From: Candidatus Liptonbacteria bacterium
GTDB taxonomy: Bacteria; Patescibacteriota; Minisyncoccia; UBA6257; 2-01-FULL-56-20
Direction: 5' to 3'
NCBI GenBank assembly: GCA_016194445.1
Contig: JACQBP010000010.1
Location: 75-64,074 of the forward strand
DNA: 64,000 bases
Position numbers and translations under genes: made by a program. The notes beneath the pieces were generated by a model. That model did not search any database, was not told the DNA's origin, and saw only the letters and a program-made list of their open reading frames with translations. Of this stretch, positions 5,099-44,740 are shown piece by piece (the first letter of the stretch is position 1; the number at the start of each line of letters is the position of its first letter).

Positions 5099-5168
5099 AA
5101 CGTGCATATGTTGACCCAGCGCCACAAATAGGACATTTCTTTTTAATTATCGCTTTTGTGGTGCTGGG

Positions 5169-5196: not shown

Positions 5197-5202
5197 ATAG
5201 TT

Positions 5203-5445: not shown

Positions 5446-5470
5446 TAAAAAAGGCGTAATTAAAAAACCT

Positions 5471-6052: not shown

Positions 6053-6282
6053 TGGAGATGCGGTAGAAGTTAAAAAATAAAAGATAAAAATGAAAAGTGA
6101 CAGTGAAAACTTAAAAAACTAAAGAGAAGAAAAATCGAGATACAAAAAAATAAAAGTGAAAAATGGCGGTGAAAAGTTAAAAATGGGATTTAGAAAAGGA
6201 CCGAATAGAAACACGATAGAGATACAATAGAGAAACTTTGGATATATTTTGGGGAAAAACGGTCGAAAAATAGATAATAAAA

Positions 6283-6738: not shown

Positions 6739-6770
6739 ATTTTTCTGGCTTGAAAGTTTTATGAGGAAGT

Positions 6771-7334: not shown

Positions 7335-7373
7335 ATGAGGATATAGAATTTAGAATTTAGGATTTAGGTTACT

Positions 7374-8288: not shown

Positions 8289-8298
8289 TGAGAGGGTA

Positions 8299-13644: not shown

Positions 13645-15537
13645 ATGCCATTTTTATCGCAAGATGTAGTTTATTTCGGCCGGACGGATTTTCGTAACGC
13701 GAAGCGACTTTTCGGCATTAAGCGCAACGATCGGCGACAGCATATGTACGTGGTGGGGAAGACTGGGACTGGTAAAACGGCTCTGCTTCACAACATGGTG
13801 GTGCAAGATATTACGAATGGCGAGGGGGTGTGCGTGGTGGATCCGCACGGAGAGTTTGTGGAAAGTCTTTTGTCTAAAATTCCGGAGGAGAGACTCAAGG
13901 ATGTGATTTATTTCAATCCGGCGGACACCGATTATCCGATGGGGTTTAATCCGCTCGAGTTGCCGGATCAAAAATATAAACACTTGGCGGCTTCGGGGCT
14001 GATGGCCATTTTTACCAAGATTTGGGCGAATGTTTGGTCGGCGAGGATGGAGTACATTTTAAATAACGCTATTTTGGCGCTCTTAGAGACGCCGGGATCG
14101 ACACTTTTGGGAGTGAATAGAATTTTAGTCGACAAGGATTTCCGCCAAAAGATTATTGTGAACGTCAAAGATCCGGTGGTCAAGGCTTTTTGGACCAACG
14201 AGTTTGAAGCTTGGCGGGATCAGTTTCGCAACGAAGCCATCGCGCCGATTCAAAATAAAGTCGGGCAATTTCTTTCGACTGATTTGATTCGGAATGTCGT
14301 CGGTCAGCCGAAGAGCACGATCGACATTTTCGAGATTATAAACACCCGGAAAATTTTCCTCGTCAATGTTTCGAAGGGGCGGATTGGGGAGGACAATTCC
14401 GCGCTTTTAGGGGCGATGCTCATCACTAAAATTCAGCTCTCGGCGATGGAGCGGGTGCGGATTCCAGAGGAAGAACGGGCGGATTTTTATTTATACGTCG
14501 ACGAGTTTCAAAATTTTGCCACTGATTCCTTTGCCGGCATTCTTTCGGAGGCAAGGAAGTATCGGTTGAATTTGATTTTGGCGCACCAGTACATTGGGCA
14601 GCTGGTGACGGACGTTTCGACCAAAGTGCGGGACGCAGTTTTTGGCAACTGCGGGACGATGGTGATTTTTCGGATTGGGGCTACAGACGCCGAATTTTTG
14701 GAGAACGAACTGACACCCGAGTTTTTGCCAGAAGATATGGTCAACCTGCCGAATTACGCGGTTTATTTGAAGCTGATGGTGAACGGGATTACCTCGCGAC
14801 CGTTTTCGGCGGCGACGTTGCCGCCGTTTAAGGTGCCGACTTCTTCGGTGACGATTGAGAAGGTGCTCGAAGATTCTAGAAAAAATTACACGCGTTCGAG
14901 ATATGAAGTCGAGTCTCAAATTAATAGCTGGAGCGGGATGATGGGGGATGTGGTCGGTGGAGACGAAGAGAAAGCGAGGAGCGGAGTGGAACCGGGAGGT
15001 AAGTTGCCTGAGGGTCAAAAAATCGCGGCGACCTGTTCTTCTTGCGGGAAAAGGACGGAGCTGAATTTTGTGCCCACCGAGGGGCGGCCGATTTACTGCC
15101 GCGATTGTTTGGCGAAGATAAAAACGGGCGAGATGCCGAGAGTGAAGGTAGGGAAGGTCAAAGTGGCTAAACCTCAAGATAAATATTTTTCGGATTTGGC
15201 GGGATTGGGCATTGAATTTGAAGAAGATAAAAAGAAAGAGGGGGATGAGGAGGGAGGAGAAGGCAGTGAGCCTTCGAGGAGACCGGGGGGTTTGGCAACT
15301 CCGACTGGCCGAGGAATAAAGGAAATGGCGGAGGCGTCACTAAAAAAAGAAGTTTCCTTGCACTTAAGCGATCTAAAACCTAACGAGAAAGAGAGGACAC
15401 AAAAGCCGAAAAAAACTTCGGGTTTAAATATCGAAGAACTCCGGCGATCGATCACGGAAGCTTTGGAAAACCAAACGGCGGTTACTAAGGCGGAAGACAG
15501 TAATCAAAATGACTTTAGAGAAGAGAAGGCGATTTGA
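13645..15537 (+). CDS. FtsK/HerA/VirD4-superfamily P-loop ATPase (TraD/VirD4 coupling-protein-like, DUF87-like) with a C-terminal zinc ribbon
   Basis: Walker A GKTGTGKT, Walker B YLYVDEFQNF and a VDPHGEF motif. The C-terminus has CSSCGKRTELNFVPTEGRPIYCRDC. It is paralogous to 37693-39162. Confidence 0.6.
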   Translation: MPFLSQDVVYFGRTDFRNAKRLFGIKRNDRRQHMYVVGKTGTGKTALLHNMVVQDITNGEGVCVVDPHGEFVESLLSKIPEERLKDVIYFNPADTDYPMGFNPLELPDQKYKHLAASGLMAIFTKIWANVWSARMEYILNNAILALLETPGSTLLGVNRILVDKDFRQKIIVNVKDPVVKAFWTNEFEAWRDQFRNEAIAPIQNKVGQFLSTDLIRNVVGQPKSTIDIFEIINTRKIFLVNVSKGRIGEDNSALLGAMLITKIQLSAMERVRIPEEERADFYLYVDEFQNFATDSFAGILSEARKYRLNLILAHQYIGQLVTDVSTKVRDAVFGNCGTMVIFRIGATDAEFLENELTPEFLPEDMVNLPNYAVYLKLMVNGITSRPFSAATLPPFKVPTSSVTIEKVLEDSRKNYTRSRYEVESQINSWSGMMGDVVGGDEEKARSGVEPGGKLPEGQKIAATCSSCGKRTELNFVPTEGRPIYCRDCLAKIKTGEMPRVKVGKVKVAKPQDKYFSDLAGLGIEFEEDKKKEGDEEGGEGSEPSRRPGGLATPTGRGIKEMAEASLKKEVSLHLSDLKPNEKERTQKPKKTSGLNIEELRRSITEALENQTAVTKAEDSNQNDFREEKAI

Positions 15538-16234
15538 TATCATTACGATTTTCCCGAAGATCTTTGATTCTTACATTGGAGAGTCTTTTTTTAAGCGCGC
15601 GATTAAGGCGGGACTAATCGAGATTCGGACGCATAATCTGCGAGATTTCACTAACGATAAACATGCGAGAGTTGATGATCGGCCTTTTGGCGGGGGACCC
15701 GGGATGGTCCTAAAAATCGAACCGATTTTCCGAGCTGTTCAAAATGTTCGAGTTGATCGAAATGTTCGAAATGACGATCAAGCGAAGCGATCCATCAAGC
15801 GAAGTGATCGAGCGGTTCGAACTCGAGTTATTCTCTTCAGCACTCGGGGAAAGAAATTGGACGCGAAGATGGCGCAGAGGCTGGCGAAGTATGACCAATT
15901 AATTTTGATTTGCGGGAGATATGAGGGAGTGGATGAAAGGGTGGCAAAATATGTTGCCGACGAAGAAATCTCGATCGGGGATTATGTTTTGTCGGGAGGC
16001 GAATTGCCGGCCGCTGTTTTGATTGAGACGATCAGTCGTTTTTTGCCGGGTTTTTTGGGCAAGCGGGAGTCACTCGAGGAAGTTAAGGGTACTTATCCGG
16101 TTTATACTCAACCGGCTGATTTTCGGCCGATAAAATCGAGAAGTGTCTGGAAGGCGCCGAAAGTTTTGTTGTCGGGAGATCACAAAAAAATCCAAGCATG
16201 GCGATCCGACAAAAAGTCCTCTTCTGGGGTTTGA
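15509..16234 (+). CDS. trmD: tRNA (guanine37-N1)-methyltransferase
   Basis: TrmD motifs RFDIITIFP, PFGGGPGMVL, CGRYEGVDERV and GDYVLSGGELPA. A ~30-aa low-complexity insertion is encoded by short direct DNA repeats (15730-15810). Confidence 0.85.
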   Translation: MTLEKRRRFDIITIFPKIFDSYIGESFFKRAIKAGLIEIRTHNLRDFTNDKHARVDDRPFGGGPGMVLKIEPIFRAVQNVRVDRNVRNDDQAKRSIKRSDRAVRTRVILFSTRGKKLDAKMAQRLAKYDQLILICGRYEGVDERVAKYVADEEISIGDYVLSGGELPAAVLIETISRFLPGFLGKRESLEEVKGTYPVYTQPADFRPIKSRSVWKAPKVLLSGDHKKIQAWRSDKKSSSGV

Positions 16235-17634
16235 TTTTTCTTTTAGGTATTTTTGGCGCTTCGAGCGGGTGGAGTTTTTATTGGGTTTTTTTATTGGCCG
16301 GAGTTGGCGCTTTGATTTTTTGGCGGTTTAGAAAAGAAAAGAAAGGGGCATTACTAGTGGTTGGGACTTTGGTTGGTCTTGGCCTCGGATTTTTTTACTA
16401 CAGTTTTTATATTAATTTCACCGAGCGGAACCAAAACATTGTTTTGGACCGGAAAATTAATTTTGCGGGTGTGGTTACGAAAACCGAGATGCGGGACACT
16501 TATCAAAAATTAATTTTAGAACTTACGCCGCCTGATCGGGGGACGGTGATGGTCTTAGCTAAGCCAGCGCCAAACTTTGAGTACGGCGATCTTCTTAGGA
16601 TGGAAGGGGAAATTAGGGCGAGTCAGTTTGTCAATCAACCGCCCACGGTCGCTTTCCCAAAAATTGAAGTCGAAGCTAAAGATCAAGGGTTTTGGTTAAA
16701 AGCTGAACTTTATAAATTTAAAAACCATTTGACCGCTCAATTTAAGAAATATCTGAACGCTGACCAGGCGGCGCTCGTTTCGGGGATTACTTTCGGCGAG
16801 CGAGCTGAATTTAACAAAGATTTGAAAAACGATATGGCTCGAAGCGGAGTGACTCACATTGTGGCCTTGTCGGGCTACAACATCGCTGTTTTAGTTTTGG
16901 CCATTGAGCGGTCTTTGAAGAAACTGATGGCTCGCCGAAAGAGATTTTATTTGACGCTCGCGATTATCTTCCTTTTCGTCCTAATGGTGGGTGGTGAGGC
17001 ATCGGTCGTGCGGGCGGCAATTATGGGCGCGCTCATTCTCCTCGCCCAACATATCGGCCGACCGCACGATGCGTTGCATATTATAATGCTCACGGCTCTC
17101 GGGATGGTTTTAGTGAATCCCACTCTTCTCGCGTACGACATCGGTTTTCAGCTTTCATTTTTGAGTTTACTCGGGATTATTTTTCTGGAGCCGGCTCTCC
17201 GAAGAATTTTTAAAGTTGAAACTAAAAAAGGGGAAAGCTTTTTGGCTTGGAGGGAAAATGGCCTCACAACTATGGCCGCGCAACTGGCTGTGATTCCCGT
17301 TTTGATCCACAGCTTCAATCAGTTTTCCTTGACGGCGGTGGTTTCAAACGCTTTGATTTTGGTGACGGTGCCTTTGGCCATGTTTTTGGGGTTTCTGCTC
17401 GTAACCCTAAGTTCCATTTCTTTTTTCCTCGGCTTTTTGGCGGCAAAACTGGTAAGCATTTTGGCTTTCTATCAAATTTCCATCATCAAGATATTTTCGG
17501 TAATTTATATACCTCTGCCCGGCGGCCAATTTTTAAATAGTGGAATTGTTTTTGTAGTTTACTATGCCTTACTGATTTGGCTGGTCTTGTTGAAACAAGA
17601 AAAGGTCCCGACATTTAAAAAAATAAACCGATGA
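16198..17634 (+). CDS. comEC: competence protein ComEC/Rec2 (membrane channel part)
   Basis: Polytopic membrane protein with the Competence-domain motif GVTHIVALSGYNIAVLV. Confidence 0.75.
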   Translation: MAIRQKVLFWGLIFLLGIFGASSGWSFYWVFLLAGVGALIFWRFRKEKKGALLVVGTLVGLGLGFFYYSFYINFTERNQNIVLDRKINFAGVVTKTEMRDTYQKLILELTPPDRGTVMVLAKPAPNFEYGDLLRMEGEIRASQFVNQPPTVAFPKIEVEAKDQGFWLKAELYKFKNHLTAQFKKYLNADQAALVSGITFGERAEFNKDLKNDMARSGVTHIVALSGYNIAVLVLAIERSLKKLMARRKRFYLTLAIIFLFVLMVGGEASVVRAAIMGALILLAQHIGRPHDALHIIMLTALGMVLVNPTLLAYDIGFQLSFLSLLGIIFLEPALRRIFKVETKKGESFLAWRENGLTTMAAQLAVIPVLIHSFNQFSLTAVVSNALILVTVPLAMFLGFLLVTLSSISFFLGFLAAKLVSILAFYQISIIKIFSVIYIPLPGGQFLNSGIVFVVYYALLIWLVLLKQEKVPTFKKINR

Positions 17635-18479
17635 AAAATTTGAGTTGGATCATCGTTTTGGCCCTCATTGGTCTTAATTTGTTAACTTGGCGCGAAATAG
17701 TTTTTTCGAGTCAGGCCGGACCGGCTAAATTTTATTTTCTCCAAATCGGCCAGGGCGATTCAACTTTGGTCGAGTTACCCACCGGAGCGCAGATTTTAAC
17801 CGATGCCGGGCCGACGAAAAAAGTGGTTGACGAGTTGCAAAAGGTGATGGCTGGATCTGATCGCTATATAGACTTAGTGGTGGTTTCGCATCCGCAACTG
17901 GACCACTTCAACGGTTTTAACGATGTTTTAGATCGTTATCAAATCGGCGCTTTTATTTTTAACGGGCGGGAATCGGAACTGCCGGAATGGAAAGGTTTGA
18001 TGGCTAAAGTTAAAGAGAAAAAAATTCCGCTCGTCACACTCGCGGAGGGCGATCGAATAAAAAATGGCGGAAATGTGATTGACTTTATTTCACCGACTAA
18101 AGATTTTATTCAAAGCGCGGAGTTAAACGACACTGGCCTGGTTGAACTTATAAAAACAGAAAAAATGAGAATGCTTTTGACCGCAGACATCGGCGCGAAC
18201 GTGGAAAAATATCTGGTCGAAAAATTCGGCGGGCAGTTGGCGGCCGATATTTTGAAAGTACCTCACCACGGTTCGAAGTATTCCTCAAGCGAAGAATTTT
18301 TAAAAGCGATTCAGCCGAAGGTGGCCGTAATTGAGGTGGGTCAAAATAAGTATGGTCATCCAACCAAAGAAGCGTTGGACCGTTTGGAAGGGGTGGGCGC
18401 TAAAATTTTCCGCACAGATAGAAATGGAACTGTCACGATCACCACTTTCGGAGACAAAATGGAGGTTTTTGAGAATTAA
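17631..18479 (+). CDS. ComEC-type metallo-beta-lactamase domain protein. This is the ComEC C-terminal domain encoded as a separate ORF that overlaps the previous ORF by ATGA
   Basis: The sequence FLQIGQGDSTLVELPTG...VVSHPQLDHFNG is typical of the ComEC Lactamase_B domain. Confidence 0.7.
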   Translation: MKNLSWIIVLALIGLNLLTWREIVFSSQAGPAKFYFLQIGQGDSTLVELPTGAQILTDAGPTKKVVDELQKVMAGSDRYIDLVVVSHPQLDHFNGFNDVLDRYQIGAFIFNGRESELPEWKGLMAKVKEKKIPLVTLAEGDRIKNGGNVIDFISPTKDFIQSAELNDTGLVELIKTEKMRMLLTADIGANVEKYLVEKFGGQLAADILKVPHHGSKYSSSEEFLKAIQPKVAVIEVGQNKYGHPTKEALDRLEGVGAKIFRTDRNGTVTITTFGDKMEVFEN

Positions 18480-28081: not shown

Positions 28082-28588
28082 ATGGACAAATTGCCGGGTG
28101 ATTATGTGGCGGGTTTTGTGGATGGTGAGGGTTGTTTTGCTTTAAAATTTAGGCGCGATGTTAAACATGAACGTAAGGGTAAACCCATCTATTTCTATTG
28201 GGATATTGAATTCGCTATTGTTTTGCGTGAAGATGATGGAGGGATAATTCAAAACATAAGGGATACTCTGGGTTGTGGGAAAATAAGTATTAGCCGGAAA
28301 GGCCAAGTCAGGTATTCAGTAAACAGGATTGATGATTTACTTGATAAGGTAGTGCCATTCTTTGAGAGGTATAGATTAAGGGCAAAAAAGAGATTCGATT
28401 TTGAGTTATGGACAGAAGCTCTTGAGATATTGTCGAGAAATCAACAGACTAAGACGAAACGTAAAGGTATAGGTTTTGCAAAAGTAGAATGGGGAAGGGA
28501 TGATTTAAAAAGGTTGAGAGAAATCCAGGAAGAAATGCGAGAATTTAAGAGTAAAAGGAGTGATTGGAAATGGATAGCTCAAGTTTAA
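28082..28588 (+). CDS. free-standing single-motif LAGLIDADG homing endonuclease (I-CreI-like, 168 aa)
   Basis: YVAGFVDGEGCF LAGLIDADG motif near the N-terminus. The size and architecture match I-CreI. Confidence 0.75.
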   Translation: MDKLPGDYVAGFVDGEGCFALKFRRDVKHERKGKPIYFYWDIEFAIVLREDDGGIIQNIRDTLGCGKISISRKGQVRYSVNRIDDLLDKVVPFFERYRLRAKKRFDFELWTEALEILSRNQQTKTKRKGIGFAKVEWGRDDLKRLREIQEEMREFKSKRSDWKWIAQV

Positions 28589-35188: not shown

Positions 35189-35220
35189 GAAGTGTTATCT
35201 TAAACTGCGGGTTTGCGTTT

Positions 35221-35256
35221 TACTACACTATTTCGCGATCGCGAAATAGTGTAGTA
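35221..35256. terminator. 36-bp perfect palindrome (TACTACACTATTTCGCGA/TCGCGAAATAGTGTAGTA) between the convergent fmt and Cys-rich genes; a candidate bidirectional terminator hairpin
   Basis: Perfect 18/18 inverted repeat located between two convergent stop codons. Confidence 0.5.
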
Positions 35257-35279
35257 AGGTTGTATTTCTTCTTTTTTGT

Positions 35280-37052
35280 TTAGTTAACTTCAAGATTGTA
35301 ACAACTTTCACAGTAAACAATTTCTGGACGGTTTAGGGCGTAGGTGGTGTGGAACTGGTTGGAGCAGGGCCCGGTTTCGTGATGGCGATGCGGGATTGTG
35401 TTTGAATATTTTTGGTAGTCGCACATACATTGCCGGAGATACCATTTGGGAGAGTTGCGGAGCTTGATTCTGGCTTGATGGCGGCAAGCGTGACAGAGTC
35501 GAGGCAGGGAGATTTCGAATTTTTTGTAGAACTCAAGTTCTGAAGCTAGAATGCGGTAGGCCTTTTTACATCCCAAGCAGCCGATAGTTTCTTTCAAAAT
35601 ATCTTCTGGTACGTCTCGAATATGGTCGGGCAAATCAGAAGCGCCTAAGGTAACTTTGAATTCTTTGGCTTCGGGATCTCGCCAGCGAAATCCTTTTTGA
35701 GTTGCCGCATCTTTGGTCAACAGAAAGAGATCTTGAGCGATGGTTTCGTTGTAAGCAAAAGGTGAAATTTCTAGCGGGAAAAATTCGCCATACCGGTAGA
35801 TGCGGCCACGGTGATCAGTGAAGGGTTTCTCATTCATGTGGGTAATGATTTTTTCTCGAAGTTTGTGAAAGTCTTCTCTAGAATACTGTTTATTAAAGAT
35901 GCAGTAAGATTTTTTCTTAAGGCCGACGCAACCGAAAAGATGGGTGGAAGAATGGCAATGCGCCGAGTATTCGACCTCTTCACAGGCGGGCCAGCATTCA
36001 AAGGAGAATTTCACTTGGCGGCAATTTTCGCCGCAGATGATAGATTCATACATCAACTCCGAATTATCGCCCCAGTGAGTGTAGTCGTAGCAATCGGCGG
36101 CGCCGTTTACCACCCGCTCGCAATATTTCAAATCTTTGATGTCTTTGATGACTTGATAACAGTATTTAGCATTTTTGGCGTGGTAGACATAATCACCGAT
36201 GACGTTTTCATTGTGGTGGCCGTGGATGTATTTAAAGGGGTGTTTAAGCCAGAAGGGGTAAATTTGTTTTTGAATGGCCTCGAGCGCGCGGTAGGAACCG
36301 AGGTTAAACTCTTTAATTTTCTCCAAGTATTCCTCTTTGGTGTAAGGGACATTGAAAATGTGATATTGCTTATGCCTTAAGTTGACACAACCGAAGCAGT
36401 TTTGGCAGTTGTAGCATTCACGCGAGAACCAGACGTTTTGACAGTCATCGCTTTCAACACTCATAAAAGTTTGGTTGCAGCGGTCGCAGGAAAGGAGTCC
36501 GTAGCAGGATTCGAGATAGTTGGCTTCGGAAAAATCGAATGAGTTGCTGCAGTGACGAAACCCCACGCCGTAGAAGCAGTTTTCAGATTCGTCGGCGTCA
36601 AAGCAAAGATAGCAGTCTTTGAGACGATTGCCGTTGTTGCAATAATCACTGTTGTTAAGATGCCAAATCGAGAGCGCGGCCCAAGGGACCGCATAAAATA
36701 GTTCCCGAAACTGTTCGAAGAAGGTTTTAGAAAAATCGTAATCCCGGGCGTATTCACTCGCGTCCCAGCCGTCGGACCACCAGTAGTCGTGGTCGTAGAG
36801 TTTAGCGCCGGAAGTTTTTGGGTAAGCGGAAAAGATCTCTTTGCCGGTTTTATGATGGGTGGCGCGGTAGAGATTGTGTTCATTCCAGAAAGAGAGGCGC
36901 CGGATGGCTCGACACCCCGGACACCAGGTGGGCGGAGGGACTTGAATTTTTTCGTAGAACTGAAAATCTTCGGGTTCGATTACGAAATTTTGTTTACAGT
37001 TTTGGCAGGTTTTAGTTTCAGGATTCATATTTGTGGCACTATGACGCGTCAT
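35280..37052 (-). CDS. large cysteine-rich protein of unknown function (590 aa, ~50 Cys) with terminal CxxC...CPxC zinc-ribbon-like motifs
   Basis: N-terminal CQNCKQNFVIEPEDFQFYEKIQVPPPTWCPGCR and C-terminal CLGCKKAYRILASELEFYKKFEISLPRLCHACR are mutually similar. The interior is packed with CxxC/CxGC modules (ECYNCQNCFGCVNL, SCYGLLSCDRCNQTF and others). The first codons (MTRHS) lie in a palindrome also found at 12558. Confidence 0.6.
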   Translation of the reverse strand: MTRHSATNMNPETKTCQNCKQNFVIEPEDFQFYEKIQVPPPTWCPGCRAIRRLSFWNEHNLYRATHHKTGKEIFSAYPKTSGAKLYDHDYWWSDGWDASEYARDYDFSKTFFEQFRELFYAVPWAALSIWHLNNSDYCNNGNRLKDCYLCFDADESENCFYGVGFRHCSNSFDFSEANYLESCYGLLSCDRCNQTFMSVESDDCQNVWFSRECYNCQNCFGCVNLRHKQYHIFNVPYTKEEYLEKIKEFNLGSYRALEAIQKQIYPFWLKHPFKYIHGHHNENVIGDYVYHAKNAKYCYQVIKDIKDLKYCERVVNGAADCYDYTHWGDNSELMYESIICGENCRQVKFSFECWPACEEVEYSAHCHSSTHLFGCVGLKKKSYCIFNKQYSREDFHKLREKIITHMNEKPFTDHRGRIYRYGEFFPLEISPFAYNETIAQDLFLLTKDAATQKGFRWRDPEAKEFKVTLGASDLPDHIRDVPEDILKETIGCLGCKKAYRILASELEFYKKFEISLPRLCHACRHQARIKLRNSPKWYLRQCMCDYQKYSNTIPHRHHETGPCSNQFHTTYALNRPEIVYCESCYNLEVN

Positions 37053-37138: not shown

Positions 37139-37408
37139 TTAGAGGTTTTGATAAAGAGTTTCGATGCTATCAGACCTTACGCCGGTGTGAAATTTTTCTA
37201 GTTCTTCACGCAGAATTGTAAGGACGTATCTATCTTCTTGCCATTTCGGATCGCTAAGAGAGAAGTCAACGAGCGGAAAAGCGCGCTCAATGGCTTCACG
37301 AAAGTATTTTGGGTTTTTTTTCTGCCAAGTTTTGGCGCGCATTATTTCGGATCCTATCATTAGAAGTTGCTGGTTTTTTGAGAAACTATTCCAACGGTCT
37401 TGAGTCAT
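37139..37408 (-). CDS. small hypothetical protein (89 aa)
   Basis: ORF lying immediately downstream of the ATPase operon. Confidence 0.4.
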   Translation of the reverse strand: MTQDRWNSFSKNQQLLMIGSEIMRAKTWQKKNPKYFREAIERAFPLVDFSLSDPKWQEDRYVLTILREELEKFHTGVRSDSIETLYQNL

Positions 37409-37612
37409 TTAATGTAGAAGTTCTTTAACTATTTTCTCAACTTTTTCCTTTATCTCCTGAATTTGAATTTCCATTGACCGATTCCCGACTTTCGGCCGGA
37501 TGTTAATCATCGAAGCATATTCAATTTCTTTGCTTTCGAGGTCTTTGAAATCTGAACCGTCGGATTGGAGCTCCTCGGCACAGTCAATATGAAACTCGCA
37601 ACCCATACTCAA
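37409..37612 (-). CDS. small acidic hypothetical protein (67 aa)
   Basis: Its ORF end abuts 37408, the start of the preceding ORF, suggesting co-transcription. Confidence 0.4.
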   Translation of the reverse strand: MSMGCEFHIDCAEELQSDGSDFKDLESKEIEYASMINIRPKVGNRSMEIQIQEIKEKVEKIVKELLH

Positions 37613-37692
37613 AATTCCTTTTTGATATCAACGACGACTTTTACGAAGTCGCTGTTGTCGGGTAGCGCTGTTTTTTCTTTGATGATCATATT

Positions 37693-39162
37693 TTAGATCA
37701 ATGGTTCGGGTTCTTTGTTAGCGGTGGGGCCGGTGTTTTTTTCATCGTTGCCAGATTTTGCTTTGCCTTCAATGATGGCTTTTTCCCCAGCACTTCGGAA
37801 AATAGTGGCTTCTTCGGCGGCGATTAATTTTTTAGCGGCATCGGCGGGTATGGTGTATTTGCGGCGAGACTTGTCAGTGATTTCGTTTTTCCAAGATGAG
37901 TGGGTGGGTGGCAGAACTTTCAGGGTTTCGGCGGAGAAGGGATCGTAGGTTTCGCCGTCGATGGTCATTTTAATGTAGAACTCTTGCATGCCGAGGTTGA
38001 TCATGTCTTTGGTTTTGAAGATTGGGTCCATTTCGGGTTCAAGTTTGACCGCGTCTTCACCACCGACCCTAAAAATAACGATCGTGCCGGTGTTGCCAAG
38101 TACGGCGGCTTGGACGCGCGGGAGGAGTTGGGCGACGTATTGGTGGGCCACAGTGAGGCAGAGACCGTATTTGCGAGCTTCGGACAAGATGTTTTCGAAA
38201 GTTTCGGTGACTAAGTTGTGGAATTCGTCGACGTAGAGATAGAAGTCTGTGCGGGCCTCTTCGGGCATACTAGCTCTCGCCATGCCGGCTTGCTTGATTT
38301 TGGTGATAAACATCGCGCCCAAGAAACTCGAATTTTCTTCGCCAAGACGGCCTTTGCAGAGGTTGATAAAAAGAATTTTCTTTTCTTTCATTATCCTTTC
38401 GATATCGATCTTGTTTTCCTTTTGGCCGAAGATGTTACGTAAAAGCGGGTCGGACAAGAATTGGCCGAGTTTGTTTACAAGCGGGATGATGGCATCGGTG
38501 TCAAACTTTTCTGACCAATCGGCGAATTCAATCGCCCAGAAACGTTTGACCATGTCGTCCTCGATGTACTCGACAACTTTTTGGCGATAGTTGCGGTCGG
38601 TAAGCATCGAGATCATGCCGCGCATGGTGGCGTGCGGGTAATCCAAAAGCGCGAGACAAGTGAAACGGAAGACGTGTTCGAGGCGCGGGGTCCAGTTGGC
38701 GCCAAATTGCTTTTCCATGACTTCGATTAAACCTTGAGTGAGTTGGTGCTTAAAGGAAGGATCGATATTAGTTAGAGGATTAAAAGAGACGGGGTGAGCA
38801 AGATCGGTCGGGTCAATAATAATGACATCCTCGACTCGCTCTTTTGGCATGAAGTCTAAAATTTCCTGAATGACATCGCCGTGAGGATCAATAAAAACAA
38901 GACCATGGCCGTAGGCGATATCTTGGCGAATTAAGAGTTCGAGGAGTTTGGATTTCCCCACGCCGCTTTTGCCGACGATGTACATATGGCGGCGGCGATC
39001 TTTGCGCTTGATGCCGAAGATGAATTTCTTTTCCTCAAGAGCGGCCACGTAATTAGTGCGACCGATGAAAGAGGCTTCGGCGGGATCAACTCGGCCGTAG
39101 ATCGGGAGCTCCGACGGAGGCGGAGCGTATTTGATAATTTGAACTTTTCCGGCTTTGGGCAC
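37693..39162 (-). CDS. FtsK/HerA/VirD4-superfamily P-loop ATPase, paralog 2 (TraD/VirD4 coupling-protein-like)
   Basis: Walker A GKSGVGKS, VFIDPHGD and Walker B YLYVDEFHNL motifs. It is collinear with 13645-15537 and has a GTG start (MPKAGK). Confidence 0.6.
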   Translation of the reverse strand: MPKAGKVQIIKYAPPPSELPIYGRVDPAEASFIGRTNYVAALEEKKFIFGIKRKDRRRHMYIVGKSGVGKSKLLELLIRQDIAYGHGLVFIDPHGDVIQEILDFMPKERVEDVIIIDPTDLAHPVSFNPLTNIDPSFKHQLTQGLIEVMEKQFGANWTPRLEHVFRFTCLALLDYPHATMRGMISMLTDRNYRQKVVEYIEDDMVKRFWAIEFADWSEKFDTDAIIPLVNKLGQFLSDPLLRNIFGQKENKIDIERIMKEKKILFINLCKGRLGEENSSFLGAMFITKIKQAGMARASMPEEARTDFYLYVDEFHNLVTETFENILSEARKYGLCLTVAHQYVAQLLPRVQAAVLGNTGTIVIFRVGGEDAVKLEPEMDPIFKTKDMINLGMQEFYIKMTIDGETYDPFSAETLKVLPPTHSSWKNEITDKSRRKYTIPADAAKKLIAAEEATIFRSAGEKAIIEGKAKSGNDEKNTGPTANKEPEPLI

Positions 39163-39212
39163 GTTACAAGTTTAAAATTAAAAAGATCAAAGTTAAAAGT
39201 CACTGTTATTCT

Positions 39213-39809
39213 TCATAGTTCGGCGAGATCGATGACGTCTAACTCCTGAAGCATCACTTCGTAATTGTGAATGGCTTTTTTGACGCCTTCTCGAGTGATT
39301 TCGAAATCAGGAGTGTGGACAATATGGTTGCGGTATTCATTAGCTTTCAGGGCGGGACTACGGATCCAACCGAGATCATCCGAAAGGATTTGATTGATCT
39401 TGTCGCCGGTGGTTTCACCCGTGAAACCCACTCGCTCCAAGATTTCGCCGGCTAACTTGTCCGCTTCCATGATGGCTAATTTCATTAAGTCAGTGTCGCC
39501 ACTCAACGCTTTTTTTCGGATTGATCGCCACTCTACCATCACGGCTTTTTCTTCTTCGGATAGAACTTTTTTAATTTTTGGCGTTTGAATCGCTAAGTGA
39601 GGGCGATAAGGGATGGCTTTAATTAGGGAAAAGATAAAAAAAATGAGGAAGGTGAAGTTCACGGCAAACCAAAAAACTTTGACGTCGATCACGGGTTTTT
39701 GAGGCCAGGCGTCCACGGTTAGATAAATGGAGCCAGCCAGGAGTAAGACGCCGATCACAAAGACCAGAGACCGGAGCAGTTTTAAAGTTTGGTAGAAACC
39801 CCAATTCAT
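39213..39809 (-). CDS. membrane protein (two N-terminal TM helices plus a soluble domain)
   Basis: Hydrophobic helices LVFVIGVLLLAGSIYL and FWFAVNFTFLIFFIFSLI. It is flanked by the ATPase and large membrane protein genes in the same orientation. Confidence 0.5.
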   Translation of the reverse strand: MNWGFYQTLKLLRSLVFVIGVLLLAGSIYLTVDAWPQKPVIDVKVFWFAVNFTFLIFFIFSLIKAIPYRPHLAIQTPKIKKVLSEEEKAVMVEWRSIRKKALSGDTDLMKLAIMEADKLAGEILERVGFTGETTGDKINQILSDDLGWIRSPALKANEYRNHIVHTPDFEITREGVKKAIHNYEVMLQELDVIDLAEL

Positions 39810-39816
39810 TTTGATG

Positions 39817-41202
39817 CTAGAGGAATTTTTCGATTTTTTCTTCTTCGCCGAAAATGGCTAAGCCCGCCGGCGGCCCCGCCTTGCGACTCTCAACGCGTTT
39901 GACGTGCGGAGCCACCAAGACATATTGGCTCGGCGGATGGAAGAGGGTAGCGATGGATTCGATATTTAAATGGATGGGCTTAGAAGCAAAATTGAAATTA
40001 AAATGATAGGCGGAAAGGATTTTGGCCCAGAAAGTCTTTTGAGGTTGTTTCCAGCGCAAGTAGTTGTAGAGAAGTCGTTGTTTGCGGTAGCGATTTCTGG
40101 TTTGGGCAAAGAAGAAGGGCCAAGTCCAGAATTTAAGACGGGTGGAAACTTTGATGTTTTGCCTAAAAGAATTCAAGTCGAGGGCGCTATATTGATTAAA
40201 CGCACCAACCAAGCCGCGACGGGCAAAGCTGTCGTAAAACATTAGCTTCGGTGAAAAATAAATAAAGCGGACCGTGGTTTTGAAAGCGGGTTTAGAGAGG
40301 TTGGTTTCGACCGCCTTTAAGACATCGGTTTCGCCGGGAGAACGAGTGAGGGATTTGGCGAAGAGGTCGAGGGCATCGGTCTCGGGTTTTTCGGTAGTGA
40401 AAACTGGCAACGGGCCGCCGGGGAAAGTGGTGGTGGTTTCGACTCCGCCAAGATGAGCCTGGGCTTCTCGCCGGGCTTTAGTTTGCTTTAACTTTTCAAC
40501 CAATTCTTCCCATTCGTCTTTCCACGAGGCGGTATCAGCTTCGAGCAGAAGTTGAATGCCGACCATTTCTTGTTTTTTGACTTTCGCGAGCACTTCTAAA
40601 AAGGCGGAGATGGGGTCGTATTCTTTATTTTCATCGGGTGACTCAAAGAACGGATAAGTTTTGATCGGGTAAGCTTCTTCACGATTCAGAACCATTTCGG
40701 TACCCCAGAGCTCGTAGCCTTTGCTGTACATATCCTCGACGTTCGACGGGAAGCGGTTTAAGTAATCCTCAACCTCGACGAGCTCAACGTCTTGGTAATA
40801 CGAGTAAAAAGCGGCTTCAACCAAAGCGCGATATTTGTAATAAAGCCGAACATAAAAATGGACTTCCCCACCGAAGCTCACCATTTCTAAAGAAAACCAG
40901 CGGGTGACTTCGCCGTCGCGATAGTACTCGGCAAGGTCATAGGCTTCGTTTCTTAAGGCGTGGATGGAAGCCAAGACTTGTTCCATGGCCTTTGGATTAC
41001 GAAGCGTTTCGCGCGGCATATTGATTTCCAAAAGAATCCACTTAAGTTTTTTCTTGAAATCCTCTCGGCGCCAAAAAAGAAGGGTTTGCTCAGCCATCTG
41101 GAAAAGAATAAAAGCTAAGGCAAATAAGCCAATTAAAGTGGCGATCTCGAGGTTGAGGGGCGAAAGGATATTTGTCAGATCCGTGGCGGTCGCGGGTGAC
41201 AT
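39817..41202 (-). CDS. large membrane-anchored protein of unknown function (461 aa)
   Basis: N-terminal TM helix (IATLIGLFALAFILF) followed by a large soluble domain. It is the second gene of the putative operon. Confidence 0.5.
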   Translation of the reverse strand: MSPATATDLTNILSPLNLEIATLIGLFALAFILFQMAEQTLLFWRREDFKKKLKWILLEINMPRETLRNPKAMEQVLASIHALRNEAYDLAEYYRDGEVTRWFSLEMVSFGGEVHFYVRLYYKYRALVEAAFYSYYQDVELVEVEDYLNRFPSNVEDMYSKGYELWGTEMVLNREEAYPIKTYPFFESPDENKEYDPISAFLEVLAKVKKQEMVGIQLLLEADTASWKDEWEELVEKLKQTKARREAQAHLGGVETTTTFPGGPLPVFTTEKPETDALDLFAKSLTRSPGETDVLKAVETNLSKPAFKTTVRFIYFSPKLMFYDSFARRGLVGAFNQYSALDLNSFRQNIKVSTRLKFWTWPFFFAQTRNRYRKQRLLYNYLRWKQPQKTFWAKILSAYHFNFNFASKPIHLNIESIATLFHPPSQYVLVAPHVKRVESRKAGPPAGLAIFGEEEKIEKFL

Positions 41203-41252
41203 GATCTAATTATAACCAGGAATCCCCGCCGAAGCTAGCGAACAAATAACAG

Positions 41253-42281
41253 TTAGTCTTGCCGGATGCGGTAGCGGCCGTCTTCTAGCCGTTCAAAAAA
41301 TTTGCGATTTTGGAGGTTAACGAGGATGGTGTTGGGTTTTAAGATTCGTTCCTTTTGGATGGCTAAGGAAATCTCCCCAGTCTTCAAGGGACCATTCTCT
41401 TTCAAAATGCGTTTAATCACCTCCTGGACCGTGCCGGGTTTGTAGCCGTGCTCGGCTAAGGCGTAGATACCTCGGCCGACTAGAACAAAACGCTTATCTT
41501 TAATGAGTTCGTTGTGAACAGTGGGCGCTAAAGCCACCTTGCCGTCGAATTTAATTTTATTAATTTCCGTAGCGATGGTTTCGAAATGGAGCGGCTGGCC
41601 GGTTTTTTTCAAGACTAGATAGATACGGTCGCGGATATTTTGGGGTTTGATTTCGGGCCATTCGGCTAGGCCGGTTTCGTTGTAAGGACTGGTGTGAATT
41701 TTTTTGGAGATGCCGATGTAACTTAGAGCCTGACTTTCGGTCATTTTTTGGCTCGCAACAAATTCTTTGAGGAGTTTTTGAAAGTGGCCAGCGAGAATCG
41801 CGTTTTTGGAGCCGCGCATGAATTTGGCGAGTTGGGTGATGAACTTGGTGTTTTGACTAAGCTTTTCGTTGTCAAGGTAATAAAAAGGCCAGAAGTTCTT
41901 ATCTTCATCGTGAAAGTGGAAAGCGCCGGTCGTTTCAAGCAGGAAGAGAAGATGATTGCGAGTGATGCCATCCGAAACCGAAGCTAATTCAGTAAGAAGC
42001 ATATCTTCTTTGGCTGATCCACCGTTCGTTTGGAGATGCTTTTTGCCCTTGCTTAAAATAGCTTGGCATTCGGCGTTACTCACAACCCTATTTTTTAGGG
42101 TTTTTAAGCTTTGGAATTCAATTTGTCGGATTCTTTCCCGAGTCAGGTTGTGGTTTTGGCCAATAGCCGCTAGGGTTTGCGGCGCTTGATCGAGTAGGCC
42201 AAAGCGACCAGAAACTACCTCCTTCTGGCGGGGGTTCAAATTGGTAAGAATAGAATCAATTGTTTTTTTGATACTAGGCAT
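41253..42281 (-). CDS. sigma-70 region-4 (HTH) domain-containing regulator-like protein
   Basis: The N-terminal LNPRQKEVVSGRFGLLDQAPQTLAAIGQNHNLTRERIRQIEFQSLKTLK matches sigma-70 region 4. The remaining ~270 aa have no recognisable domain. It is the first gene of the minus-strand cluster. Confidence 0.6.
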   Translation of the reverse strand: MPSIKKTIDSILTNLNPRQKEVVSGRFGLLDQAPQTLAAIGQNHNLTRERIRQIEFQSLKTLKNRVVSNAECQAILSKGKKHLQTNGGSAKEDMLLTELASVSDGITRNHLLFLLETTGAFHFHDEDKNFWPFYYLDNEKLSQNTKFITQLAKFMRGSKNAILAGHFQKLLKEFVASQKMTESQALSYIGISKKIHTSPYNETGLAEWPEIKPQNIRDRIYLVLKKTGQPLHFETIATEINKIKFDGKVALAPTVHNELIKDKRFVLVGRGIYALAEHGYKPGTVQEVIKRILKENGPLKTGEISLAIQKERILKPNTILVNLQNRKFFERLEDGRYRIRQD

Positions 42282-42292
42282 AGATTCTGTGT

Positions 42293-42531
42293 ATTATAAA
42301 CATATTATTTTAATTTCGTCAACCCCGGTGATATTAGTACTCGAAGTGTAATATTTAAAGGTTTTTTATCATACCATTTGATAGTTACTGGGTCAACCCG
42401 GTGCCACAAGCGGGACATTTTCTTGAATTTGGGCTGTGAGTTGAAGTGAGTGTCATCTGTTTAGCCTTGCACCAACTGTCGAAACACGAAGGATGTTTTT
42501 TTATCATCCCACTTGGTGGCTACCGGGTCAA
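42293..42531 (-). promoter_or_regulatory. three tandem sigma70-type promoters reading into the sigma-r4 gene
   Basis: On the minus strand: TTGACG at 42317-42322 (-35), an 18-nt spacer, then TTATAAT at 42293-42299 (-10); TTGACC at 42391-42396, N17, TATGAT at 42368-42373; TTGACC at 42526-42531, N17, GATGAT at 42503-42508. The second and third lie within two ~45-nt direct-repeat blocks. Confidence 0.55.
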
Positions 42532-42595
42532 CTGTTGATAACTTTTAGGATTTTGGGTCTGATTTTTACTAAAGGTGCGGCCTTTTTTTCTACTT

Positions 42596-44740
42596 TTATT
42601 TATTTTTGGCGGTTTGGTTGGTCAGCGTGTGCCAGACGAGTAGTAAAGGGCTGGCGACGAAGATGGATGAGTAAACACCGGTTGTGACACCGACTAAAAG
42701 AGTTAAGATAAAATATTTCAAGTTAATCGGCCCCAGGAGATAGAGAATAATCAAAACAATGATAAGGGTGAGCGAGGTGTTGATGGAGCGAGCGATGGTT
42801 TGGATGATGCTCTGATTAATAGTTTCGGCAAAGTCGGCTCGATTTTTGCTGACGATCAAATTTTCTCGAATGCGATCGAAGACAACAATGGTGTCGTGGA
42901 CCGAAAAGCCCATCACGACTAGAAGCGCGACGATAAAATTCGAATCAATTTCGATTTTTAAATAATGACCTAAAATCGCGATGAGACCAGCCGGGATGGC
43001 GATGTCGTGCAGTAAAGTAATCATGGTCACGACTCCATACTTCCAGGATGAAATGGGCCGGGAGACTTTTCGAAAAGCGTAAGCAATGTAGAGCGAGACA
43101 ATCACGATGGCGAGGATGATGGCGGTCACGGCGTTACTTTTAAGTTTTTGCCCAATCGAAGGTCCGATGGACTGAAAACTTAATTCTTCGAAGGAAGGAT
43201 AAGTTTTCTGCGCGGCTGCTTCTAAAGTGTGATGTTCGGCTTCGGTGGTGGTTTTAAAGCGAGCGAAAAATTGATTTTGGCTCGCATCCAGGTTGATGCG
43301 GATTTCGCTTATGTCACTGACAGCGGATTTAACAAAGCCTTCTAACTCTACGGTGGTGGGCTGGTTTTTTTCGATTTTAAATTGCCAGAGAGTTCCGCCC
43401 CTAAAATCGATACCTTGGTTAAAACCAAAACCAATAACGGCGAGTATCCCGGAGGCGACTAACAAACCGGAAACAGCGAGAAAAATTTTTCTTTTGGCGA
43501 TGATGTTCATGACAATTAGGTTATAGGTTGTAGGTGTTGGGTTGGCGCTGAACATACTCACCAGAACTCCGATTAAAAGGGTGAGGGCAAAGCCTCTTAC
43601 GAAACTCGAAGTGAGGAAGTAAAGGATCAAGGCCGTGATAATAGTCGAGATATTAGAGTCGCGAATGGACGGCCAGGCGCGCCGGAAGCCTTCTTCAATC
43701 GCGTTCGAACGAGAGAGTCCCCTCTTTATTTCTTCTTTGATTCTTTCGAAGATTAAAATATTGGCGTCAACAGCCATACCGATCGTAAGAATGAAACCAG
43801 CCAAACCAGCTAGAGTCATCGTCACGGAAAAGATTTTGAAAATGCCGAGGGTTAAGAAGGTGTAAATTAAAAGGGCGGATGAAGCAAAGACACCCAAGAA
43901 GCGATAGTAGGCGACCATGAAAAGCATCACTAAAAGGGTGCCGATCAAACCGGCGCTGAGCGCTCGGTTTAATGAATCAGTGCCGAGAGTCGCGCTCACG
44001 GTTTGCTGGTTGATTAGAGTGATAGGAGCCGGCAAGGCGCCCGCGTTAAAGCGTTCAACAAGACCCTGCGCTTCTTTGATGGTAAATTTTCCGGTGATCA
44101 CGGCTTGACCGCCAGAAATTTTTTGCTGAACGATGGGAGCTTCGATTAAGACGTTGTCGAGAAAGATAGCCAAGGGTTTACCGATATTAGCTTCGGTCAT
44201 CTGTTCGAAAATCGTAGCTCCTTCGCTGTTGAAGGCGATCGAAACTTGCGGCGCTTGAGTGGTTTGGTCAAAGGTGAGGGCGGCACTTTTTATATAACGG
44301 CCGGTCAGGTTAGTCGGGATGATTTCAGTTGAGGAACCGTTTTGATTGAGTTCGCGGAAGTCGAGAAGCGGAGTCAAACCAATTTGAGCGATGGCATCTT
44401 CCTTTTTTTTGATGCCGGCGAGTTCGACAATCAGATTGCTTTCTGCATTAGTTTTGGAGATGAAAACTTGGGGTTCGCTCACGCCGATTAGATTAACTCT
44501 TTTTTCGATCACATCTCGGAGGCCATTTAAAACGGAATCTTGATCCTTGGCCGGTACCTGGGCTAGATCAACTTTATAAATAAGATGGCTGCCGCCGACT
44601 AGATCCAGTCCGAGGTGCCAGGGTGACCACCGTAAACCGTAATTTTTGGGATAAATGAAAATGCCGGCTAAAACGGTTACGATTAAAATGAGAATTAAAA
44701 AGAGGCCTGGGTTGCGACGCATTGGTTGCGATTCTAACAT
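42596..44740 (-). CDS. secDF: fused protein translocase subunit SecDF
   Basis: 714 aa with SecD and SecF periplasmic and TM domains. It contains an in-frame AGGTKTY-type heptamer repeat (43518-43545) encoding PTPTTYNL. Confidence 0.85.
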   Translation of the reverse strand: MLESQPMRRNPGLFLILILIVTVLAGIFIYPKNYGLRWSPWHLGLDLVGGSHLIYKVDLAQVPAKDQDSVLNGLRDVIEKRVNLIGVSEPQVFISKTNAESNLIVELAGIKKKEDAIAQIGLTPLLDFRELNQNGSSTEIIPTNLTGRYIKSAALTFDQTTQAPQVSIAFNSEGATIFEQMTEANIGKPLAIFLDNVLIEAPIVQQKISGGQAVITGKFTIKEAQGLVERFNAGALPAPITLINQQTVSATLGTDSLNRALSAGLIGTLLVMLFMVAYYRFLGVFASSALLIYTFLTLGIFKIFSVTMTLAGLAGFILTIGMAVDANILIFERIKEEIKRGLSRSNAIEEGFRRAWPSIRDSNISTIITALILYFLTSSFVRGFALTLLIGVLVSMFSANPTPTTYNLIVMNIIAKRKIFLAVSGLLVASGILAVIGFGFNQGIDFRGGTLWQFKIEKNQPTTVELEGFVKSAVSDISEIRINLDASQNQFFARFKTTTEAEHHTLEAAAQKTYPSFEELSFQSIGPSIGQKLKSNAVTAIILAIVIVSLYIAYAFRKVSRPISSWKYGVVTMITLLHDIAIPAGLIAILGHYLKIEIDSNFIVALLVVMGFSVHDTIVVFDRIRENLIVSKNRADFAETINQSIIQTIARSINTSLTLIIVLIILYLLGPINLKYFILTLLVGVTTGVYSSIFVASPLLLVWHTLTNQTAKNK

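Follow-up and report, generated by a model that had tools for sequence, protein, structure and literature searches.

A putative split type IV coupling-type ATPase encoded in a conserved chromosomal gene cluster of Candidatus Liptonbacteria

We analyzed a 64,000-nucleotide (nt) stretch of DNA (hereafter, the window) from a Candidatus Liptonbacteria bacterium (assembly GCA_016194445.1, JACQBP010000010.1, positions 75-64,074 of the forward strand) and, in particular, a minus-strand gene cluster encoding a protein with sigma region 4 and HARE-HTH domains (sigma-r4 protein), two membrane proteins of 461 and 198 amino acids (aa), denoted M461 and M198, an ATPase (ATPase1) and two small proteins. M461 and ATPase1 are best described as a split type IV coupling protein (T4CP)-like protein, with an N-terminal domain that is predicted to adopt a VirB4-like fold, the pair not being a VirB4. 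A preliminary description of this DNA, made from the sequence alone, viewed the cluster as a new compact machine built of novel parts; the six minus-strand open reading frames (ORFs) that it listed are all present where it placed them, but M461 and the ATPase turn out to correspond to the two parts of coupling-type proteins that form a known class. M461 (39817-41202, minus strand) consists of an N-terminal transmembrane (TM) helix, a cytoplasmic alpha/beta domain and a conserved tail, and is identical (100%) to HY093_00730 from a Candidatus Liptonbacteria metagenome-assembled genome (MAG). ATPase1 (37693-39162, minus strand, 489 aa) is a soluble P-loop motor of the VirD4/TraD/TrwB kind, as indicated by Pfam, NCBIfam and profile matches.

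Fused relatives in phages and plasmids

The assignment of M461 and the ATPase to one protein class comes from proteins of 812-906 aa, encoded by Bacillus phages and by conjugative plasmids of Gram-positive bacteria, in which the two are fused. The 824-position profile of PHROG 5156 is matched by M461 at positions 76-287 (E = 1.4e-9) and by the ATPase at positions 389-809 (E = 9.6e-57), that is, both halves of these fused proteins are homologous to the pair in the window and are arranged in the same order. Members of this group include gp27.4 of phage SPO1 (906 aa), gp156 of Bacillus phage G (825 aa) and orf201 of phage 0305phi8-36. When M461 profiles were compared with the N-termini of fused proteins using hhalign, E-values of 5e-6 for gp156, 2.4e-7 for an 833-aa protein of the Bacillus methanolicus plasmid pBM69 (labelled 'DUF87') and 2.4e-6 for an 812-aa protein of an Embleya plasmid (labelled 'T4SS conjugative DNA transfer', where T4SS stands for type IV secretion system) were obtained, and in tblastn searches, the ATPase falls on the C-terminal halves of the same three proteins. 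An N-terminal TM helix, as in M461, is present in the Embleya protein. Residue 1 of the ATPase aligns with approximately residue 376 of the Embleya protein, and the tail of M461 aligns weakly with residues 348-401 (hhalign E = 0.015, probability 3%); if the latter alignment holds, the gene break lies at the linker. The link of M461 to phages is visible with profiles only, a tblastn search against phages having produced no match; the matches in a Microcystis phage and a Sulfitobacter plasmid are short stand-alone ATPases with uninformative contexts.

The fused gene adjoins a Replic_Relax (PF13814) gene in SPO1 (gp27.3), pBM69 and the Embleya plasmid, and in the latter plasmid as well as in phage G, it also lies beside a gene for a VirB4-type ATPase (P-loop_TraG, AAA_10, TraC_F_IV); the Embleya module further holds PrgI and NlpC/P60. 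Because the fused relatives adjoin Replic_Relax relaxases and VirB4-type ATPases, we interpret the pair in the window as a split T4CP; it is not considered to be a VirB4 because the ATPase profile has no VirB4 match (see below) and the fused relatives coexist with a genuine VirB4. The phage version has been described as a 'DNA translocation operon' that combines a relaxase with a coupling ATPase and is non-essential in the laboratory (Pathria et al. 2012; PMC3357382). Unlike the fused proteins, the version in the window occupies two genes, which in this subclade are separated by M198, and is chromosomal and vertically inherited. It also lacks Replic_Relax, an adjacent VirB4, PrgI and a cell-wall hydrolase and is preceded, instead, by the sigma-r4 gene.

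The plasmid loci themselves, in the Embleya plasmid (NZ_CP108778, 1318-9373; L168) and in pBM69 (2258-9507; L169), are compact monoderm transfer modules, for which PrgI, XF1762, a VirB4-type ATPase, the fused protein, Replic_Relax and NlpC/P60 are listed. MOB-suite types both plasmids as 'non-mobilizable', so that this class of coupling protein and relaxase may escape standard typing.

Conservation of the gene pair

The proteins of the window were mapped onto two sets of loci, namely, a close set of 80 species-level genome loci retrieved with a profile of M461 homologs (46-76% identity) and a distant set of 80 metagenome loci retrieved with a profile of distant homologs (28-41% identity to M461 of the window). 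Many of the MAG titles that read 'Candidatus Saccharibacteria' are probably generic labels, the respective proteins being 50-76% identical to the Liptonbacteria set. In the close set, the order secDF, sigma-r4, M461, M198, ATPase is nearly without exception: the ATPase gene lies downstream of M461 in 77 of the 80 loci, with two of the other three too near a contig edge to assess, and the gap between the two genes is 400-1,100 nt in 76 of these 77 (quartiles, 533-648). In the distant set, the order is secDF, sigma-r4, M461, ATPase; here, 72 of 78 loci have the ATPase after M461, and the median gap, 7 nt, leaves no room for M198. Altogether, M461 and an ATPase are adjacent in 149 of 158 loci, in agreement with the earlier proposal that the ATPase has a dedicated membrane partner. 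No extra conserved membrane or channel genes were detected downstream in the 29 distant loci examined.

The ATPases of the distant set are 51-64% identical to ATPase2, a paralog of ATPase1 that is encoded elsewhere in the window, compared to 41-50% identity to ATPase1, and 23 of the 52 complete ORFs contain a zinc ribbon. From this comparison of close and distant loci, the conserved core consists of the sigma-r4 protein, M461 and an ATPase, and M198 together with ATPase1 is a subclade innovation that evolved through duplication and insertion. ATPase2 is of the ancestral type and, in this genome, has moved 22 kb away, ahead of trmD and comEC. The pair is inherited vertically among housekeeping genes. 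The window shows an ordinary chromosome (secDF, def, fmt, ftsW, murG, murC, gltX, cysS, dnaK-dnaJ-grpE-hrcA, rplI, trmD and comEC), and the GC content of the cluster (0.44-0.47) is the same as that of its neighborhood. The median identity over 68 species declines from 79.6% for ATPase1 through 62% for SecDF, 53% for M461 and 43% for the sigma-r4 protein to 30% for M198.

The six-gene unit of the preliminary description holds in part, in that the sigma-r4 protein, M461, M198 and the ATPase are conserved together, whereas the two miniproteins are not. The spacing of 8-50 nt given there has to be corrected as well: from the sigma-r4 gene onward, in minus-strand order, the intergenic gaps are 50, 7, 50, 80, 0 and 86 nt.

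ATPase1 and its paralog ATPase2

ATPase1 scores above the Pfam cut-offs for TrwB_AAD_bind (46.4 bits, cut-off 20.5), T4SS-DNA_transf (33.9, cut-off 20.1), TraG-D_C (26.3, cut-off 22) and DUF87, and contains the Walker A motif GKSGVGKS and the Walker B motif DEFHNL, the former kept in 64 of the 66 orthologs recovered by motif search. A profile of the ATPases from the candidate phyla radiation (CPR) matches, among solved structures in the PDB, TrwB (1.6e-6), DotL (1e-3) and then HerA, with no VirB4 match. The FtsK_SpoIIIE model gives no match to ATPase1 at E up to 0.1 and 13.9 bits for ATPase2 (cut-off 24), and the VirB4 models fare no better on ATPase1 (TIGR00929, 17 bits with a cut-off of 643; AAA_10, 14.9 with a cut-off of 27.5; CagE_TrbE_VirB, no match). 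Pfam and motif scans thus uphold the earlier domain calls (sigma region 4, a VirD4/HerA-like ATPase, the two Walker motifs), including the assignment of the ATPase to the conjugation type rather than to FtsK; on the locus and Pfam data, the membrane protein and the ATPase are co-conserved and the ATPase is not an FtsK-type one. In BLASTP comparisons, ATPase1 is equally weakly similar to TrsE (VirB4) and TrsK (VirD4), at about 5e-5 and across the Walker regions only, so that the finer classification depends on profiles. The Pfam alignment covers this region of ATPase1 in one stretch (residues 54-366 to profile positions 12-310), which, with regard to the all-alpha domain inserted in the nucleotide-binding domain of T4CPs, is suggestive at most.

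ATPase1 shares with TrwB of R388, VirD4, TraD and DotL the P-loop nucleotide-binding domain with Walker A and B motifs, and TrwB and DotL are its best solved-structure matches by sequence. However, in contrast to the canonical T4CPs, the ATPase1 polypeptide has no TM domain: neither ATPase1 nor ATPase2 contains a hydrophobic TM segment, and the anchor helix is provided in trans, on the separate M461. Furthermore, the canonical proteins lack a partner with the VirB4-like N-terminal domain that is predicted here. The pair in the window is unlinked to relaxase or mating-pair-formation genes, and ATPase1 scores far under the equivalog cut-offs. Hydropathy analysis bears out the TM segments described previously, that is, one N-terminal segment in M461 and two in M198.

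ATPase2 (13645-15537, plus strand) is identified as a paralog by Pfam and by 43-45% identity to ATPase1 and carries a C-terminal CxxC-x17-CxxC zinc ribbon. The paralogy and the zinc ribbon were recognized in the preliminary description, but ATPase2 does not lie alone as stated there; rather, it leads a conserved ATPase2-TrmD-ComEC block. In the window, this block runs as ATPase2, TrmD, ComEC (DUF4131 and Competence domains) and a separate metallo-beta-lactamase (MBL) gene (13645-18479, plus strand), and the ATPase2-trmD-comEC order is repeated, after the cluster, in at least 10 related loci (L010, L016, L026, L071, L072, L074, L101, L121, L129, L144). The separation of ComEC from its MBL domain has been reported for CPR, too (PMC6744442). 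As a generally conserved partner, ComEC was rejected, given that it is nearby in only 8 of the 32 assessable loci.

M461 and its predicted fold

M461 was initially described as a novel membrane protein but already belongs to the Pfam family DUF8128 (PF26449): the precomputed annotation assigns this family to the identical protein and to nearly all homologs, and a local Pfam scan yielded no match. No mention of DUF8128 or PF26449 was found in the literature searched. At E up to 1e-3, the M461 family includes 2,368 representative clusters, of which the best 150 are all stand-alone proteins of 150-590 aa. The conserved tail, HPP..APH.KRVESRK.GPP, is predicted to be disordered.

A search of the PDB with the M461 sequence produced chance matches alone. 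An AlphaFold2 model (pLDDT 77.5, pTM 0.75) was compared with solved structures using Foldseek, and the first 14 matches are chains of TrwK, the VirB4 of R388 (E from 1.8e-4 to 8.6e-3), the next match having an E of 0.08. The cytoplasmic domain of M461 is therefore predicted to have a fold similar to that of the VirB4 N-terminal domain, to which the model is nearest. TrsD of pGO1 resembles M461 in that it is encoded as a separate N-domain-like gene directly upstream of an ATPase. However, M461 has no detectable sequence similarity to VirB4 or TrsD, and its ATPase is T4CP-like by sequence. Homology between M461 and TrsD was considered but is not demonstrable by hhalign against TrsD and TrsE of pGO1.

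The sigma-r4 protein

The first gene of the cluster (41253-42281, minus strand) encodes a 342-aa protein that contains Sigma70_r4 (residues 12-63; 45.7 bits in Pfam), a middle region without assignment, a HARE-HTH winged helix (220-276) and a second wHTH-like segment at the C-terminus. Its family profile matches region 4 of RpoS, RpoD and SigA in the PDB (E = 1e-17). Sigma70_r4 is the only sigma domain in Pfam, with region 2 not found, and NCBIfam sigma matches are confined to approximately residues 3-72 and fall far under the cut-offs. Because region 2 is missing, the domain content indicates that this protein is not a sigma factor. The gene lies directly upstream of the M461 homolog in 72 of the 80 close loci and 66 of the 78 distant ones (median gaps, 138 and 40 nt, respectively), but secDF is equally conserved upstream, so that adjacency to M461 alone is no proof of shared function. 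We also considered that the sigma-r4 protein might be a relaxase in disguise, and rejected this candidate: neither SPO1 gp27.3 nor the Replic_Relax proteins of pBM69 and the Embleya plasmid are similar to it.

M198, a membrane-tethered HEPN-fold protein

M198 (39213-39809, minus strand) has two TM helices and a cytoplasmic HEPN-fold domain with the Rx4H motif R160-N-H-I-V-H165. The C-terminal domain has the helical arrangement by which the HEPN fold is recognized, and the motif is conserved over the family, with R and N present in at least 90% of 36 homologs. Curated HEPN models match M198 only below threshold (HEPN_Swt1, best E 0.01, in 5 of 36 members; HEPN_RiboL-PSP, 0.11), and a sequence search of the PDB gave only weak matches to Rpb5. 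In the nearest relatives of the window (P0124-P0128), the motif is degenerate (YYLKLE, in the context AHEYYLKLE, or YRNKIID), with the rest of the domain kept; because the motif histidine is lost in these relatives, HEPN catalysis may be dispensable. M198 differs from Csm6, HepN/MNT toxins and the sacsin HEPN domain in its two-TM membrane tether, in the sub-threshold Pfam HEPN scores and in this loss of histidine. M198 was detected in 76 of the 80 close loci and is limited to the subclade of the window (Liptonbacteria/Jorgensenbacteria). Accordingly, the earlier view of M198 as a dedicated partner stands insofar as a two-TM protein is encoded in the operon, but this is a clade-restricted HEPN protein rather than a universal component.

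Proposed role and alternative explanations

We rate it roughly an even bet that the conserved unit is a T4CP-like ATPase in the form of a split gene, fixed on the chromosome and domesticated as a membrane-tethered substrate motor. Under this proposal, M461 would tether the soluble motor at the cytoplasmic membrane, probably via its conserved C-terminal tail, which occupies the linker position of the fused proteins. The motor would form a ring ATPase that recruits or pumps a substrate, probably DNA or nucleoprotein, at the membrane. The most likely partner channel would be the chromosomal T4SS of the phylum, which is encoded elsewhere, near dnaA, usually without a nearby coupling-protein gene; this part of the proposal is more tentative, and we put it at somewhat short of even. 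The sigma-r4 protein would take the slot that a DNA-binding relaxase has in the fused systems and may be a DNA-binding adaptor or a regulator of the operon. In the Liptonbacteria/Jorgensenbacteria subclade, duplication would have yielded ATPase1, with M198 inserted; the membrane-tethered HEPN domain of M198 might serve as an RNase-type or nucleic-acid-binding module, or its contribution might be purely structural. The function in DNA uptake or in delivery to a host that the preliminary description put forward is conjectural.

Several observations weigh against this proposal. The identity of ATPase1 among relatives, about 80%, is unusually high for a coupling protein, and its scores are far under the NCBIfam equivalog cut-offs (SXT_TraD, 59.9 against 366; conju_CD1115, 56.4 against 250). 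Relaxase, VirB4 and channel genes are absent from the scanned ORFs of the window, and the flanks of the 29 distant loci examined likewise contain none that recurs. On the side of M461, the Foldseek TM-scores against the VirB4 fold are just 0.25-0.31, and hhalign comparison with TrsD and TrsE (VirB4) of pGO1 shows no sequence similarity (TrsE probability 0.1), so that the VirB4 link rests on predicted structure. The T4SS link is an argument from parsimony rather than from data on this genome. Finally, in Ca. Southlakia epibionticum, the t4cp homolog is non-essential and the T4SS genes are essential, according to a recent survey (Quinonero-Coronel et al. 2025; PMC12102498).

The same survey covers 3,035 Patescibacteria genomes and reports VirB4 in 2,417 and VirD4-type homologs in 2,918 of them; of the 5,713 VirD4-type homologs, just 148 are close to virB4, and the role of these orphan T4CP homologs is left open, perhaps 'exapted for other functions'. 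Because such homologs are nearly universal, with about two copies in each genome, and are located far from virB4, ATPase1 and ATPase2 are very probably the same genes. The passages of the survey that were consulted mention no DUF8128 partner, split-gene relation, HEPN insertion or sigma-r4/HARE-HTH neighbor, and the T4SS literature consulted gives no partner for the orphan T4CPs. The higher prevalence of T4CP homologs is no argument for their independence from the T4SS: a single-copy gene seen in 80% of incomplete MAGs predicts 96% for a two-copy gene, which equals the reported figure.

A coupling ATPase of the T4SS ranks first among the explanations that we considered; in decreasing order of probability, it is followed by an import motor for ComEC, a T4SS-independent DNA motor, a defense system and a decaying mobile element. 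The second of these, in which the pair would draw DNA through the competence channel and thus function like ComFA or like the VirB4-type ATPases in the uptake systems Ced (archaea) and ComB (Helicobacter), appears unlikely. It is suggested by the order ATPase2, trmD, comEC and the metallo-beta-lactamase gene in the window and at least 10 related loci, by a weak NCBIfam match to CedD (E = 1.9e-8, P-loop region only), and by the notion that CPR bacteria scavenge DNA, with ComEC found in 86% of CPR genomes (PMC6744442). However, of the assessable loci, only 4 of 6 close and 4 of 26 distant ones have ComEC within 5 kb, the housekeeping gene trmD separates it from the ATPase where the above order is found, and the other downstream neighbors are EF-P, MnmA and AlaRS, so that the ComEC linkage looks like general synteny. 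In the window, a distance of 22 kb separates comEC from the M461 cluster, which is on the other strand, and the ComFC/ComFA family is itself widespread in CPR (PMC6744442).

Slightly less probable still is an FtsK-like, T4SS-independent housekeeping motor that would act on the chromosome or nucleoid at the membrane or septum, guided by the sigma-r4 protein. The motor type of ATPase1 lies within the FtsK/HerA/VirB4/VirD4 ATPase superfamily, the median identity of ATPase1 (79.6%) exceeds that of SecDF (62%), the pair is found almost universally, in synteny with housekeeping genes, and a DNA-binding sigma-r4 protein, but no channel protein, is co-conserved with it, all of which speak for such a function. 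Nevertheless, ATPase1 has no FtsK_SpoIIIE match, the closest relatives of known context are all in transfer modules, and Saccharibacteria at least have an FtsK of their own, judging by article titles and text counts. A more general form of conjugation independence, in our opinion as unlikely as the ComEC motor, is that DUF8128 and the ATPase constitute a near-universal membrane-tethered nucleic-acid motor of Patescibacteria, with a VirB4-type N-terminal domain and a VirD4-type motor, a living intermediate between the two T4SS ATPase families, which would be guided by the sigma-r4/HARE-HTH protein, coupled to a membrane-bound HEPN nuclease in one subclade, and would take up or process host nucleic acids that these organisms cannot synthesize.

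There is very little to recommend an anti-phage or conflict system that consists of a HerA/mad8-like ATPase and a HEPN effector. The PADLOC mad8 match (E = 1.2e-13) and HerA models, the HEPN fold of M198 with its Rx4H motif, and the resemblance of the sigma-r4 domain to the C-terminus of MzaA are compatible with such a system, but the unit is single-copy and vertically inherited at a fixed chromosomal position in 158 loci, and an identity of about 80% among the ATPases runs counter to the patchy, fast-evolving nature of defense islands; moreover, M198 is missing from most lineages that have the pair, Rx4H is lost in the nearest relatives of the window, and the MzaA match is to generic sigma region 4 only. 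The least credible alternative would be the decaying remains of a conjugative element that had integrated or of a prophage 'DNA translocation operon', for which the plasmid and phage location of the closest characterized relatives and the frameshift in the neighboring DUF5674 gene (see below) could be cited, but which is at odds with the four intact frames and the near-invariant Walker A motif, the presence of secDF upstream across deep divergence, the GC content indistinguishable from the surroundings, and the absence of an integrase, a relaxase and repeat boundaries.

Patescibacteria account for a large share of bacterial diversity, are host-dependent and need the T4SS for epibiotic growth. 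A DUF8128 protein with a predicted VirB4-N-domain-like fold would be a named partner for the approximately two orphan coupling-protein genes per genome, and the pair provides the first functional context for DUF8128 and a concrete two-protein complex for experimenters. The combination of a VirB4-like N-terminal domain, if correctly predicted, with a VirD4-like motor would bear on the kinship of the two T4SS ATPase families, and both the membrane-tethered HEPN protein in an operon and the free-standing region 4 of a primary sigma factor fused to HARE-HTH are targets of interest. The individual components are familiar (T4CP-like motor, VirB4-like N-domain, HEPN, sigma region 4). The novelty lies in the split arrangement, in its fixation as a core chromosomal operon over a large radiation of CPR, in the insertion of the HEPN protein and in the sigma-r4/HARE-HTH neighbor.

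Promoters and leader

Three tandem promoters were previously proposed upstream of the sigma-r4 gene; all three sites are present, but only the proximal one is conserved. This sigma-70-type promoter, TTGACG-N18-TATAAT (42293-42322, minus strand), agrees with the consensus at 11 of 12 positions and is located about 40 nt upstream of the first gene, and a promoter of this type is found at about -40 in 26 of 68 relatives (background, 0.01 per 450 nt). For the strict pattern TTGAC-N17-19-TATRAT, 0.12 occurrences are expected in the 64 kb and 4 are observed, two of them in this intergenic region; the clustering of promoter-like sites is not due to chance. The two distal promoter-like sites on the minus strand (42396-42368 and 42531-42503) lie within direct repeats (42362-42397 and 42497-42532, respectively) that are copies of one 36-nt unit, 83% identical and 135 nt apart, with no further copy in the window; the repeats had been noted earlier with a length of about 45 nt. 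Approximately 220 nt that hold the distal pair are missing from the closest relatives (L001-L003), in which secF ends about 60-130 nt before the first gene, and the distal repeat segment (42362-42532) is a lineage-specific insertion. A search of the 35-45 kb region against Rfam at E up to 1 gave no match, hence no riboswitch or small RNA in the long leader.

Neighboring genes and other features of the window

Downstream of ATPase1, the preliminary description placed two miniproteins. The first, p67 (67 aa), is the 3' portion of a frameshifted DUF5674 gene (37409-37690, minus strand), the N-terminus of which is in another frame, in a 26-aa ORF that starts at 37688 (MIIKEKTALPDNSDFVKVVVDIKKEF followed by a stop codon). 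The frame shifts at a T-run near 37613-37618, and the joined 93-aa reading scores 61.2 bits across profile positions 15-109 compared to 42.1 bits for p67 alone; the frameshift is either genuine or an assembly error. The second, p89 (89 aa; 37139-37408, minus strand), follows the DUF5674 gene with a gap of 0 nt and has no family match. These small ORFs are detectable in 4 of the 80 close loci (p67 in 2, p89 in 3) and in 1 of the 80 distant ones. The two genes co-occur in L002, L017 and, elsewhere within the locus, L114, with L021 also listed; this joint occurrence in L002, L017 and L114 suggests a small mobile two-gene cassette.

Next to p89, a Cys-rich 590-aa protein (35280-37052, minus strand) contains 36 cysteines, with zinc-ribbon-like CxxC...CxxC motifs at residues 16-47 and 492-523, and matches neither Pfam nor NCBIfam. 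At least 49 of the 80 close loci encode homologs of this protein no more than 10 kb downstream of the cluster; in L102, L117 and L156, the gene lies directly between or after the two ATPases. The protein may also be associated with the system. The fmt and Cys-rich genes are convergent, and the 44-nt hairpin that lies between them (35217-35260; 20-bp stem, G-T pairs permitted), which has T-runs, is probably a bidirectional terminator.

The scanned ORFs of at least 110 aa in the 64 kb include no relaxase, T4SS or pilus genes, which agrees with the previous remark that the gene set is unlike a canonical T4SS or type II secretion system. Upstream of the cluster, secD and secF form a single 714-aa ORF (42596-44740, minus strand); in L164 and L165 (Logan contigs with identical M461), SecD (at least 390 aa) and SecF (304 aa) are called as two genes, and the tblastn match to SecDF is broken near residue 399 in most relatives. 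The fusion may be genuine, or the sequences may differ.

Elsewhere in the window, a 1,691-aa ORF without a Pfam match (23-5098, plus strand) resides in a region with a local GC content of 0.55-0.59, compared to about 0.45 elsewhere, and with long overlapping ORFs on both strands. Adjacent genes at 7374-10395 (plus strand) encode proteins of 304 and 698 aa with one cohesin domain each, which are candidate surface or adhesion proteins. A free-standing LAGLIDADG homing endonuclease gene (28082-28588, plus strand; 72.5 bits) is located between a gene for a BNR/sortilin-repeat protein and murC.

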